A DNA stretch of 4,861 nucleotides from a virus. Its lineage: Duplodnaviria; Heunggongvirae; Uroviricota; Caudoviricetes. How positions within the stretch are numbered: the stretch's first letter is position 1; the number at the start of each line of letters is the position of its first letter. The stretch lies in IMG/VR virus record IMGVR_UViG_2711768012_000016. One strand, given 5' to 3'. Under the pieces are notes generated by a model. It worked only from the letters and a program-made list of their open reading frames with translations. It had not been told where the DNA came from and did not search any database. Both the position numbers and the translations under genes were made by a program. Below are positions 1-4,861 of this stretch, piece after piece.

Positions 1-79
1 GCTTTGAACTCTTTAGAGTAACGTTGGGTTTTTCTGCTCATTATTAGCTCCTTCTGATGCCATTCTATTTCAGGAAGGA

Positions 80-782
80 GTGTCCGTTAAACTCAGGCTA
101 CCTCAGGTTATTCGCTTCTGGGCATGGGCGGATCAACAAATGATAGACGGTAATGCAGATTGTAACGCTCGCGGCGTTACAAAAAGTGCAATAGATCGCA
201 TCACTTTTATGTCTGGTTTTGCTGATGCGTTAATTCAGGTTGGATGGCTGGTCGAAAATGACGGAGGGCTTTCTCTACCTAACTTTGAACGTCATAACGG
301 AAAAAGCTCTAAAAAAAACGGGCGGTTACAAACGAGCGAGTAACAAAAATACGCGAACTGAAACGAAAAGGTAACGCTGCCAGCGTTACACAAACGGATC
401 AAAAAGCGTTACCAGAGGAAGAGGAAGAGGAAGATCTAAATACTGATCTCCCCCTCGCCAAAAACGAGCGTCTAAAAAATTCGAGCCGGAGGCTATTGAG
501 CTGCCCGATTGGTTGCCGGAAACACTCTGGCATGAGTGGGTCCGGTTCAGACAGGCATTGCGAAAACCGATTCGAACGGAGCAGGGCGCTAACGGGGCGA
601 TACGGGAACTGGAAAAATTCCGTCAGCAGGGTTTTACACCTGAGCAGGTGATTCGACACAGCATCGCCAATGAATACCAGGGCCTGTTCGCGCCGAAAGG
701 TGTTCGGCCTGAGACGTTGCTCCGACAGGTTAACACCGTCTCGTTGCCGGACAGTGCGATCCCGCCAGGCTTCAGGGGGTAA
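80..782 (+). CDS. Phage replication initiation protein with DnaT-like C-terminal domain; frame broken twice at homopolymer runs (possibly a pseudogene, more likely assembly indels)
   Basis: Three collinear open segments on the + strand. Segment 1 (80-343, GTG start after AGGA at 72-75) encodes the N-terminal domain. Segment 2 (next frame, open from 313) encodes a charged linker ...KRAVTNERVTKIRELKRKGNAASVTQTDQKALPEEEEEEDLNTDLPLAKNERLKN. Segment 3 (third frame, open from 447, ORF-track 513-782) encodes ...KKFEPEAIELPDWLPETLWHEW...NTVSLPDSAIPPGFRG. That C-terminus closely matches my recollection of the E. coli DnaT C-terminus (PDW ... NTVSEPDSQIPPGFRG). Frame switches coincide with A8 at 311-318 and one of C5 450-454, A5 460-464 or A6 474-479. 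The stop TAA at 780-782 lies 6 nt before the DnaC-like ATG at 789. Confidence 0.6.
161..181. repeat. 19-bp palindrome GTAACGC-N5-GCGTTAC, copy 1 (putative initiator-binding site or ori iteron)
   Basis: Read directly: tGTAACGCtcgcgGCGTTACa, with arms at 162-168 and 174-180. The same 7+7 arms recur at 371-389. It lies inside the initiator N-terminal coding region. Confidence 0.5.
370..413. repeat. 19-bp palindrome GTAACGC-N5-GCGTTAC, copy 2, plus a downstream half-site (putative ori/iteron cluster)
   Basis: gGTAACGCtgccaGCGTTACa at 370-390; arms 371-377 and 383-389 form a perfect 9-bp inverted repeat GTAACGCTG/CAGCGTTAC. An extra half-site AGCGTTAC sits at 405-412. It is embedded in the A-rich linker-coding part of the initiator gene, next to a (GAGGAA)x3 tandem at 415-432. 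Confidence 0.5.
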
Positions 783-788
783 CGGACC

Positions 789-1215
789 ATGAAAAATATT
801 GCGACAGGCGGCGTTCTGGAACGCATCCGCCGACTGACCCCGCCACATGTAACCGCCCCATTCAGAACGGTAGCGGAGTGGCGCGAGTGGCAACTTGCTG
901 AAGGCCAGAAACGTAGCGAGGAGATCAACCGCCTGAATCGCCAGTTGCGGGTGGAAAAAATTCTGAATCGCTCAGGCATCCAGCCGTTGCACCGTAAATG
1001 CTCGTTTGCGAATTACCAGGTGCAGAACGACGGCCAGCGATACGCGTTAAGCCAGGCGAAATCCATCGCCGATGAACTGATGACCGGGTGTACAAATTTT
1101 GCGTTCAGCGGAAAACCTGGTACCGGGAAGAATCACTTAGCGGCAGCTATCGGGAATCGCCTGCTGAAAGACGGTCAGACAGTGATTGTGGTTACCGTGG
1201 CTGATGTTATGAGCG
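789..1215 (+). CDS. dnaC: DnaC-family helicase loader (AAA+ ATPase), prophage paralog; only the 5' part is visible and the 3' end lies inside the N-masked stretch
   Basis: ATG at 789. The visible 142 aa include the Walker A block FSGKPGTGKNHLAAAIGNRLL, identical in its core to the E. coli DnaC P-loop as I recall it, plus NRSGIQPLHRKCSFANYQV versus DnaC NRSGIRPLHQNCSFENYRV. Overall identity is roughly half, so this is a phage paralog, not chromosomal dnaC. The ORF-track end at 1733 is an artefact of translating N as X; a DnaC-length protein (about 245 aa) would end near 1520-1530. Confidence 0.85.
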
Positions 1216-2677: not shown

Positions 2678-3364
2678 ATGACCCCAATAAACATATTTAT
2701 GACAGTTGCTGATTTCAAACGGCCCAAATTGGAGCTCCCAAACGGGGCAAACAAACTACTACTGCACTCTTGCTGTGCTCCATGTTCCGGTGAGGTGATG
2801 GAGGCGCTTCAGGCCTCGGGAATCGACTACACCATCTTTTTCTACAACCCGAACATTCATCCTCAGAAAGAGTATTTAATTCGTAAGGATGAGAATATTC
2901 GCTTTGCTGAACAACACGGCGTGCCGTTTATTGATGCTGATTACGACACAGACAACTGGTTTGAACGAGCCAAAGGAATGGAATGGGAGCCCGAACGAGG
3001 GATCCGTTGCACCATGTGTTTTGACATGCGTTTTGAGCGGACAGCGCTGTACGCCGCTGAAAATGGTTTCAGTGTGATCAGCAGTTCACTGGGCATTTCA
3101 CGCTGGAAAAATATGCAGCAGGTTAACGACTGTGGGCGGCGAGCCGTCGCGCATTATCCGGGCATGGTGTACTGGGATTATAACTGGCGCAAGCAGGGCG
3201 GCTCGTCCCGTATGATTGAAATCAGCAAGCGCGAAAAATTCTATCAGCAGGAATATTGTGGCTGTGTGTATTCTCTGCGCGATACCAATCTACACCGCAA
3301 ATCTCAGGGACGCCCTCTTATCAAAATTGGTCAACTCCACTACGGTAAAGAAGAGAAGGAGTGA
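2678..3364 (+). CDS. queH: QueH-type epoxyqueuosine reductase-like protein (DUF208 family Fe-S enzyme), 228 aa
   Basis: Intact ORF carrying the motifs I associate with DUF208/QueH: [11 protein letters not shown] near the N-terminus, [31 protein letters not shown], and EYCGCVYS near the C-terminus. Cysteines at 32, 33, 36, 111, 114, 152, 194 and 196 fit a 4Fe-4S cluster plus additional metal-site arrangement. Stop TGA at 3362-3364. No SD before ATG 2678. Confidence 0.7.
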
Positions 3365-3415: not shown

Positions 3416-3893
3416 GACTGCGGGTGCTTGAGGCTATCTGCTTCAGGCATGAACACCAAAAGGCAGATAGAGAAAAGCCCCAGTTAACATTACGCGTCCG
3501 GCAAGACGCNNNNNNNNNNNNNNNNNNNNNNNNNNNNNNNNNNNNNNNNNNNNNNNNNNNNNNNNNNNNNNNNNNNNNNNNNNNNNNNNNNNNNNNNNNN
3601 NNNNNNNNNNNNNNNNNNNNNNNNNNNNNNNNNNNNNNNNNNNNNNNNNNNNNNNNNNNNNNNNNNNNNNNNNNNNNNNNNNNNNNNNNNNNNNNNNNNN
3701 NNNNNNNNNNNNNNNNNNNNNNNNNNNNNNNNNNNNNNNNNNNNNNNNNNNNNNNNNNNNNNNNNNNNNNNNNNNNNNNNNNNNNNNNNNNNNNNNNNNN
3801 NNNNNNNNNNNNNNNNNNNNNNNNNNNNNNNNNNNNNNNNNNNNNNNNNNNNNNNNNNNNNNNNNNNNNNNNNNNNNNNNNNNNNNNNNNNNN

Positions 3894-4415: not shown

Positions 4416-4769
4416 ATGGCACATATACAACTGGTCAAACAAACCTCTTCCGGATTACTTCTCCCGGCGACGCCGGAGAGTTGCGATTTTCTGCATCAAA
4501 TCAAAATAGGTGAGTGGATACACGCAGACTTTAAGCGTGTGTGTAACTACGCATTCCACAAGCGTTTTTTCAAACTCCTGCAACTGGGTTTCGATTACTG
4601 GACTCCGGTCGGTGGGGCGATCACGCCTCGCGAACGAAAACTGGTGTCCGGTTTCGTTGATTACCTGTGTGAATCAGTAGGCCGGGAACATACGCCAGCT
4701 CTGAGCGAAGCCGCAGAGCAATTGAGGTGTACTGGCAATAGCGGACACTACCATTTGTTCTTTTTTTAA
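4416..4769 (+). CDS. Phage nin-region-type hypothetical protein (tentatively DUF1367-like), probably truncated by a frame break at a T7 run
   Basis: ATG 4416 has SD GGAG at 4405-4408 (7-nt spacer). The product MAHIQLVKQTSSGLLLPATPESCDFLHQIKIGEWIHADFKRVCNYAFHKRFFKLLQLGFDYW... resembles, from memory, a conserved lambdoid prophage family that neighbours ninG. The ORF ends ...HYHLFFF* at T7 (4761-4767). The adjacent frame is open from 4769 to the window end (SSHLMIFFPEGCRGDIPQTRVTTLTIVENLN...). The ORF-track TTG start at 4374 has no SD. Confidence 0.5.
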   Translation: MAHIQLVKQTSSGLLLPATPESCDFLHQIKIGEWIHADFKRVCNYAFHKRFFKLLQLGFDYWTPVGGAITPRERKLVSGFVDYLCESVGREHTPALSEAAEQLRCTGNSGHYHLFFF

Positions 4770-4861
4770 GCAGCCATCTGATGATATTTTTCCCTGAAGG
4801 CTGCCGGGGAGATATTCCCCAGACGAGAGTGACGACGCTGACGATTGTAGAAAATCTCAAT

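Follow-up and report, generated by a model that had tools for sequence, protein, structure and literature searches.

Replication origins that lie inside the gene of their own initiator are exemplified by ori-lambda, which is located within gene O of phage lambda and of Stx phages and consists of iterons and an AT-rich tract that are bound by the O protein. A second system of relevance is the Rac prophage of Escherichia coli K-12, which has been reported to hold an active origin, oriJ. Here we focus on a related arrangement in a stretch of 4,861 nt of Caudoviricetes DNA (IMG/VR record IMGVR_UViG_2711768012_000016; the whole stretch is referred to as the window), in which the palindrome GTAACGC-N5-GCGTTAC occurs twice within the remains of a ydaU-like initiator gene and is followed by a tract made up of purines only. 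As judged from sequence comparison across the family of related initiators, these palindromes are probably the initiator-binding iterons of a replication origin that is situated within the initiator gene. The elements in question are the following:

160-182, no strand assigned: distal site, TTGTAACGC-TCGCG-GCGTTACAA, a palindrome with 9-nt arms
371-389, no strand assigned: proximal palindrome, GTAACGCTG-C-CAGCGTTAC, with 9-nt arms
405-413, no strand assigned: extra half-site, AGCGTTACC, the last of the proximal cluster, adjoining the purine tract
414-434, plus strand: all-purine tract, AGAGGAAGAGGAAGAGGAAGA, with (GAGGAA)3, directly 3' of the last half-site

The resemblance to ori-lambda concerns the arrangement as a whole. 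Repeated dyad-symmetric sites lie in the gene of the initiator itself, at the end of its N-terminal domain (N-domain) and in the linker that follows; a special tract comes after the sites, and the gene of a putative helicase loader is found just downstream. Furthermore, the initiator has two domains, as in lambda, where the N-terminal one binds the origin and the C-terminal one recruits the helicase loader, and the specificity of the site appears to travel with the N-domain. The components, however, are different. Where ori-lambda has four to six contiguous 19-bp iterons, the present family has two clusters of half-sites approximately 200-300 bp apart, and in place of an AT-rich region there is a purine-only repeat of penta- or hexanucleotides. 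Unlike lambda P, the partner protein is DnaC/IstB-like, and the C-terminal domain (C-domain) of the initiator is DnaT-like. The N-domain of the window family has no sequence homology to lambda O; membership of the lambda O family was considered and rejected, as the N-domain gave no match to Pfam Phage_rep_O (none at E <= 0.1), and the resemblance to some proteins annotated as 'O' (Gifsy-2, mEpX1) is confined to the C-terminal part. An earlier note, made from the letters of the window, had proposed a lambda-like origin; this holds for the logic and the layout within the initiator gene, but not for the initiator, which is no homolog of lambda O.

With the Rac prophage of K-12, the locus shares the gene order ydaS/T - ydaU - ydaV, the DnaT-like C-domain and a C-tract. 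YdaU of K-12 differs, however, in its DUF1376 N-domain, and its gene has no GTAACGC palindrome. The linker region of ydaU in K-12 MG1655 (L110:3011-3080, offsets +392 to +458) carries TGTTCAAACA three times, two direct and one inverted, and these repeats are candidate iterons of the classical oriJ. Identity with the oriJ/ydaU of K-12 Rac was rejected on these grounds: because N-domain and repeats differ, the window element is not oriJ, but another specificity class in the same slot.

Two further comparisons are of interest. E. coli DnaT (primosomal protein I) has a C-terminal domain that binds single-stranded DNA (ssDNA) and is similar to the C-domain of the initiator, but it has no origin-binding N-domain and serves PriA-dependent restart rather than a sequence-specific origin, so that the likeness lies in the protein and not in the palindromes. 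The iteron theta plasmids with winged-helix Rep proteins (pSK41 RepA, RepE/Pi types) show no detectable sequence homology and, in contrast to these plasmids, the sites described here lie inside the initiator coding sequence and the elements are temperate phages. In a plasmid collection, the N-domain occurs in two phage-like circular records only, which therefore provide no independent evidence of use by an autonomous replicon. These records, L341 (CP088505.1, 52 kb, E. coli) and L342 (NC_015459.1, 41 kb, Pusillimonas), carry the initiator class among phage genes (cII, NinB, Rha) and are probably episomal or excised phage genomes.

The palindromic sites as conserved DNA elements

An exact pattern search of the window located GTAACGC-N5-GCGTTAC at 162-180 (spacer TCGCG) and at 371-389 (spacer TGCCA), the two positions at which the earlier note had reported it, and found no third copy there even at 2 mismatches. 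In dinucleotide-preserving shuffles, 0.01 matches are expected, and two or more copies arose in 0/200 shuffles. A chance origin of the two copies, which had already been called unlikely, is excluded. The previously described 7-bp arms with a 5-bp spacer are present as an exact pattern, but the arms are really 9 nt long in both copies (160-168/174-182 and 371-379/381-389). Likewise, the half-site noticed at 405-412 is present and extends over 405-413 as a perfect 9-nt inverted match to 370-378, coding for K-A-L-P. The runs of A (311-318, 345-349, 401-405, 460-464 and 474-479) and the threefold GAGGAA tandem (415-432) were confirmed at the places originally given. In the AlphaFold model of the initiator, the distal site codes for residues 54-60 (CNARGVT) in a low-confidence loop of the N-domain, and the proximal palindrome codes for GNAASVT within the disordered linker.

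In the window, the two sites are read in the same frame as N-A-x-x-V-T, a motif that occurs in most homologs that share the GTAACG half-site (class A), so that the palindromes might be seen as the by-product of a needed amino-acid repeat, [GC]-N-A-x-x-V-T. The behavior of the codons argues against this. In a codon alignment of 14 homologs (49-100% amino acid identity; from E. coli, Mixta, Rahnella, Pectobacterium and Planctomycetota, and from phages of Klebsiella, Pseudomonas, Xylella and Ralstonia), the only codons with a wobble entropy of 0 are those that overlap the sites or the start of the purine tract, namely G50, N55, S58, V59, N124, V128, A135, L136 and E139. Thus, the wobble of the site codons never varies, whereas that of other conserved residues does, with entropies of 0.44-1.96 in about 50 such columns. 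In the codons of half-site 405-413, Ala is GCG in 11/11 sequences and Leu136 is TTA in 14/14, despite the six codons possible for Leu. In addition, the same DNA is found in another reading frame, since in four loci (L012 and L094-L096) the proximal palindrome encodes VTxxAL instead of NAxxVT, and it is found outside of coding sequence: of the 93 loci checked, which are mostly close Rac-like relatives, 77 have a third exact copy between ydaT and ydaU, located 32-42 bp ahead of the ATG. The placement of the encoded residues in a low-confidence loop and a disordered linker also speaks against a needed peptide. Because of the wobble, reading-frame and non-coding evidence, the peptide-repeat explanation was rejected, and we consider it hardly credible.

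Conservation of the arms extends over a considerable evolutionary range. When bacterial genomes and viral contigs were searched by protein similarity, the loci obtained had all 14 arm bases unchanged and at the same gene offsets, around a variable 5-nt spacer, down to amino acid identities of 69% (Mixta/Erwinia), 60% (Rahnella), 57% (Pectobacterium), 50-55% (two Planctomycetota) and 49% (a metagenome-assembled genome of Pseudomonadota), and the arms are similarly conserved in phages of Klebsiella, E. coli, Pseudomonas, Xylella and Ralstonia that were retrieved by tblastn. Among 47 non-redundant homologs, the arms of the distal site are exact at gene offset +145 to +164, and the proximal site is conserved at +335 to +404. 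Conservation of the palindrome independent of codon wobble, which the earlier note had suggested looking for, is evident in the invariant wobble positions, the other frame and the non-coding copy, and DNA-level selection acts on the sites. The outcome that the note had named as refuting, a loss of the palindromes in homologs through synonymous changes, is not what the homologs show.

Whereas the two in-gene clusters are present throughout, most non-Rac members lack the upstream copy. At L002:3866-3897, in a relative with an intact gene, the upstream palindrome adjoins an AAGGTG Shine-Dalgarno sequence and ends 13 nt before the ATG. In the mRNA, it would be an 8-bp hairpin by the ribosome-binding site, and a translational effect is possible.

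The position of the upstream copy in Rac-like relatives, 13 nt from the ATG and by the Shine-Dalgarno sequence, is one of the points that favor a purely regulatory function, in which the sites act as autoregulatory operators or transcription roadblocks for ydaU-ydaV, with the origin elsewhere in the phage. The initiators of many iteron replicons autoregulate, and the wide separation of the clusters would suit looping. However, no sigma-70-like promoter was found in L002:3300-4800, and therefore none overlaps the upstream copy; an operator overlapping a promoter was rejected as a candidate because no promoter-like site was found. Regulation alone also fails to account for the distribution of the copies, as the upstream one is missing from most non-Rac members that do possess the in-gene clusters, and it leaves the near-invariant purine tract by the last half-site unexplained. 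We regard it as unlikely that the sites are regulatory only, and note that regulatory and origin roles are not mutually exclusive.

The arrangement of the half-sites is highly regular. In 47 non-redundant class-A genes, the hexamer GTAACG/CGTTAC is clustered in two places, from +145 to +206 and from +335 to +427. Direct half-sites are spaced by 11-12 bp (79 pairs) or by 22-24 bp (27 pairs) and inverted ones by 13 bp (97 pairs); neighboring half-sites are approximately one helical turn, or multiples thereof, apart. The two palindromes and the half-site of the window are a minimal form of this two-cluster layout. When viral contigs were scanned for the DNA pattern only, 80 loci were recovered, and 105 of 119 sites lay at most 700 nt from an N-domain homolog; the remaining sites were mostly singletons, some of them at contig ends. 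The sites are specific to this initiator gene family.

This geometry also bears on the possibility that the palindromes act as hairpins in ssDNA or RNA, e.g., as a signal for primosome assembly or single-strand initiation, as an attenuator or RNase structure, or as a terminator on the antisense strand. Folded as ssDNA, the two palindromes are stable (-9.4 and -7.6 kcal/mol; z = -4.1 and -3.2), the proximal one is terminator-like together with a minus-strand T-run, the arms change between site classes while their complementarity stays, and the C-domain resembles DnaT, which is a primosome protein. Yet within a class the arm sequence itself is invariant and the loop variable, 106 direct-repeat half-site pairs (spaced by 11-12 or 22-24 bp) cannot pair at all, some classes have mostly direct arrays, and no Rfam match was obtained, which together make a hairpin function quite improbable. 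With regard to the terminator, the minus strand reads through the proximal palindrome 371-389 into CTTTTCGTTT and receives an intrinsic-terminator-like score; an intrinsic terminator or structured RNA was rejected as a candidate, as the terminator-like match is on the antisense strand only and there is no Rfam family.

Initiator domains, site classes and the purine tract

The intact initiator of 262 amino acids matches PHROG 2509, 'replication initiation protein' (E = 1.2e-89 over residues 1-262), to which the epsilon15 and TL-2011b proteins also belong. WP_038340159.1 is an example of the intact protein, and vB_EcoS-673R7 is an intact relative. The window copy is not an intact open reading frame (ORF) of this family, owing to a 5' truncation, a +2 insertion and a 10-bp deletion. 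No Pfam-A family matched the intact protein at E <= 0.1. Its last ~90 residues align to residues 92-179 of E. coli DnaT (PDB 2ru8, 9zbt; E = 1e-4 to 3e-4), and the end of the C-domain, ...VNTVSxPDSxIPPGFRG, is shared with DnaT. In tblastn searches against phages, residues 1 to ~140 occur with other C-termini and residues ~150-240 with other N-termini, which shows that the initiator is modular. The AlphaFold model comprises a confident N-domain (residues 10-95) with helices at 16-25, 29-48, 61-68 and 73-80 and a beta-hairpin at 84-91, followed by a disordered, acidic linker (residues 96-159) and a helical C-domain. The helix-helix-hairpin layout of the N-domain is predicted to be winged-helix-like, with a predicted recognition helix at about 73-80.

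The sequence of the site differs between N-domain classes. Homologs with diverged N-domains from epsilon15, SPN1S, BUCT711, RPZH6, phiPSA1 and Carin1 have no GTAACG; the first five of these carry GTCCGC-N7-GCGGAC twice, at +65 and ~+344, and Carin1 carries the proximal copy only. In Raharianne, GTAGACG-N6-CGTCTAC is found at +153 and +369, and contigs retrieved through the purine tract add further classes, including GTCACG, GTCCCC/GGGGAC, GTGACGTCAC-type and others. In 40 of 78 such purine-tract loci, the proximal cluster is preceded, at a distance of 220-330 bp, by a distal 19-bp palindrome of the same half-site. When the alignment columns encoded by the sites were masked, the nearest non-duplicate N-domain neighbor had the same half-site in 66/87 cases, a number that was reached by 0/1000 label shuffles. 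A natural domain swap is provided by the Klebsiella phages BUCT711 and ST11-OXA245phi3.2, in which the C-domain is common and both N-domain and site are different, and loci with only the C-domain in common have no site. The site thus co-varies with the N-domain class and follows the N-domain rather than the C-domain.

One member of the GTCCGC type shows a rearrangement. In L113 (IMGVR_UViG_3300045988_040153, ~8373-8396), the purine tract is found at only +95 nt within the ORF, and the protein reads ...HPKVVRMASA directly followed by SEADKKRTREEKRRE, which looks like the result of a recombination between the distal and the proximal GTCCGC cluster that deleted the N-domain. Repeated sites may be recombination hot spots.

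In nearly all members, a purine-only repeat stands directly 3' of the proximal cluster. Most classes have CAGAGAAGAGAAGAGAAGAGAAGA, i.e., (GAGAA)4-5, coding for EEKRREEK, and the Rac-like group including the window has (GAGGAA)3-4. In 17/22 loci retrieved by protein similarity, the tract adjoins the last half-site and no other run of purines in the gene comes near it in length; it starts at +372 to +422 and measures 17-29 nt, compared to 7-14 nt for the runner-up run. The exact tract 24-mer is present in at least 120 viral contigs, nearly always within a 'MAGDWIK...' initiator ORF at +360 to +540 nt, and among the matches listed the last half-site touches it (xxxxAC immediately joined to CAGAGAAG). 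Across N-domain classes, the tract DNA is nearly identical. The tract is a candidate unwinding or helicase-loading region. The earlier note had stressed the runs of A, but the conserved neighbor of the sites is the purine tract at 414-434. As regards an AT-rich unwinding element, the stability profile picks out no single region convincingly. A test of Arg codons (AGR in 36/36 within the tract vs. 91/404 elsewhere) was discarded because it is circular, the region having been defined as a purine run.

Approximately 10-30 nt past the purine tract, at the junction to the C-terminal module, there is a motif CCCCCC-N3-4-CCCCCC (coding for PPNPP), which was seen at window positions 445-459, at L002:4338-4362, in L094, L097, L098, L103 and L106, and in K-12 ydaU. 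Its significance may lie in the DNA, as a signal or a recombination junction, or in the protein, as a motif.

A probable origin within the initiator gene

The interpretation of the palindromes as iterons of an origin draws on their location in an initiator gene, where they fall in the last part of the N-domain and the linker, on the N-domain-linked specificity, on the adjoining tract and on the loader gene downstream. The earlier proposal of an origin embedded in the initiator gene is supported by the DNA-level conservation of the sites and their covariation with the N-domain, as far as such comparisons of sequence can tell. The N-domain of the initiator would bind to GTAACG half-sites spaced by about one helical turn, resulting in two occupied clusters ~200 bp apart, the distal one at 160-182 and the proximal one at 371-413. 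Strand opening or helicase loading would then take place at the (GAGGAA)3 tract (414-434) that adjoins the proximal cluster, and the DnaT-like C-domain, together with the DnaC-like YdaV encoded downstream, would bring DnaB. We infer N-domain binding, origin function and the role of the tract alike.

Several points weigh against this interpretation. No binding or replication experiment on any family member was found in the searchable literature. The two clusters lie ~200-300 bp apart, unlike the compact arrangement in lambda. The tract is purine-only and not AT-rich and, although the 40-bp window that contains it has the lowest stability in the region, ~2 standard deviations below the mean, there are near ties elsewhere. 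The covariation of site and N-domain is partly confounded, because both clusters are situated in, or border on, the DNA that codes for the N-domain; such linkage, however, fails to explain that a given gene always has the same half-site in its distal and its proximal cluster. Finally, the initiator gene of the window is a pseudogene and has no present function in cis. As the initiator is dead and the third, upstream site is gone, the cis element of the window is a relic, whose use would require that the initiator be supplied in trans by a co-resident prophage of this class.

Beyond the origin within the initiator gene, we tentatively put forward a broader proposal, which seems to us possible rather than probable. 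The window would represent one specificity class of a large, apparently undescribed origin family, in which each class has its own half-site arrays, coupled to a near-universal (GAGAA)n/(GAGGAA)n mirror repeat that is the actual unwinding or helicase-loading element, and DnaT-like C-domains load DnaB. The homopurine mirror repeat might act, e.g., via non-B DNA or strand-specific binding, and DnaB might be loaded by primosome mimicry rather than by a contact of the lambda O-P type. The family would extend over temperate phages whose hosts are Enterobacterales, Pseudomonas, Xanthomonas/Xylella, Ralstonia, Vibrio-like bacteria and even Planctomycetota.

The decayed prophage locus and its implications

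The region of the window that holds the sites is 97-99% identical to hundreds of prophage loci of E. coli and Shigella, where an intact 789-nt gene sits between ydaT and ydaV, its annotation being either hypothetical or 'phage replication initiator YdaU family protein'. The closest genome match is Shigella flexneri. The further features of the locus are:

1-104, minus strand: terminal part of an IS600 copy, matching regions annotated as IS3-like IS600 transposase at 100%
105-782, plus strand: initiator pseudogene, 98-99% identical to intact 789-nt genes (e.g., L002:3898-4686)
311-318, plus strand: run of eight A, six in intact relatives; +2 frameshift, after which the N-terminal frame stops at 341-343
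445-459, plus strand: C-tract remnant, intact form GATCTCCCCCTAAATCCCCCTCGCC, coding for PLNPP; site of a 10-bp loss
789-1215, plus strand: 5' part of a ydaV-like DnaC/IstB-type ATPase gene (Pfam IstB_IS21, E = 1.4e-6)
4725-4861: second IS600 end, 100% match

Homology to intact initiator genes begins at window position 105, and the IS600 insertion has cost the gene its first ~34 codons as well as the upstream, third palindrome. Alignment with intact relatives further shows that 10 bases were lost near 447-448, between TCCCCCT direct repeats, which causes a second frameshift. Owing to the two additional A and the 10-bp deletion, the reading frame is split into 80-343 and 513-782. The original assignment of the sites to the interior of an initiator gene is therefore correct as to their derivation, but the gene is not intact, being truncated by IS600 and frameshifted twice. 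A different course of decay is seen at L003:2501-3300 (Shigella flexneri SFBU1023), where the same initiator gene retains the upstream site, is one GAGGAA unit short and has its C-domain frameshifted by a deletion of 11 bp. Since these lesions differ from those of the window, the gene decayed independently in the two.

The ydaV-like gene, annotated in relatives as encoding the ATP-binding protein YdaV, enters masked N after 1215; its product is a putative helicase loader and the operon partner of the initiator. As both ends of the window are IS600, the window is a 4.6-kb prophage remnant between two IS600 copies, which seemingly have the same orientation (by the direction of the transposase ORF). 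The right copy cuts off a DUF1367 gene (4416-4769). Two stretches are masked as N, 1216-1677 (most of the ydaV-like gene) and 3510-3893 (after QueH). The prophage-borne epoxyqueuosine reductase QueH is encoded at 2678-3364 (Pfam E = 2e-65), and 5' of it lie the genes of a DUF977 winged-helix protein (1694-2116) and of a small zinc-ribbon-like protein (2174-2530).

No description of the sites or the tract was found in the searchable literature, in which subscription journals are thinly covered, so that an earlier description is possible. That an origin may lie within the initiator gene is a textbook principle; the breadth of this family, its co-varying site classes and its near-universal purine repeat are not. 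If the proposed reading is true, it would provide a sequence-level definition of the origin for phage modules now labeled 'hypothetical' or 'replication initiation protein', including those of Rac-like prophages of E. coli and Shigella, Salmonella phages of the epsilon15/SPN1S type, TL-2011b and many phages of Pseudomonas, Xanthomonas and Ralstonia. The paired N-domain classes and half-sites would constitute a natural table from which rules of recognition could be tested, and the purine pentanucleotide repeat would be an unusual conserved component of an origin. In addition, DNA elements would impose recurring odd peptide motifs on the proteins encoded across them, such as GNAxSVT, SASEAD and EEKRREE. 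Decayed prophages may then keep intact origin DNA, which could be fired by a related incoming phage or by a co-resident prophage.

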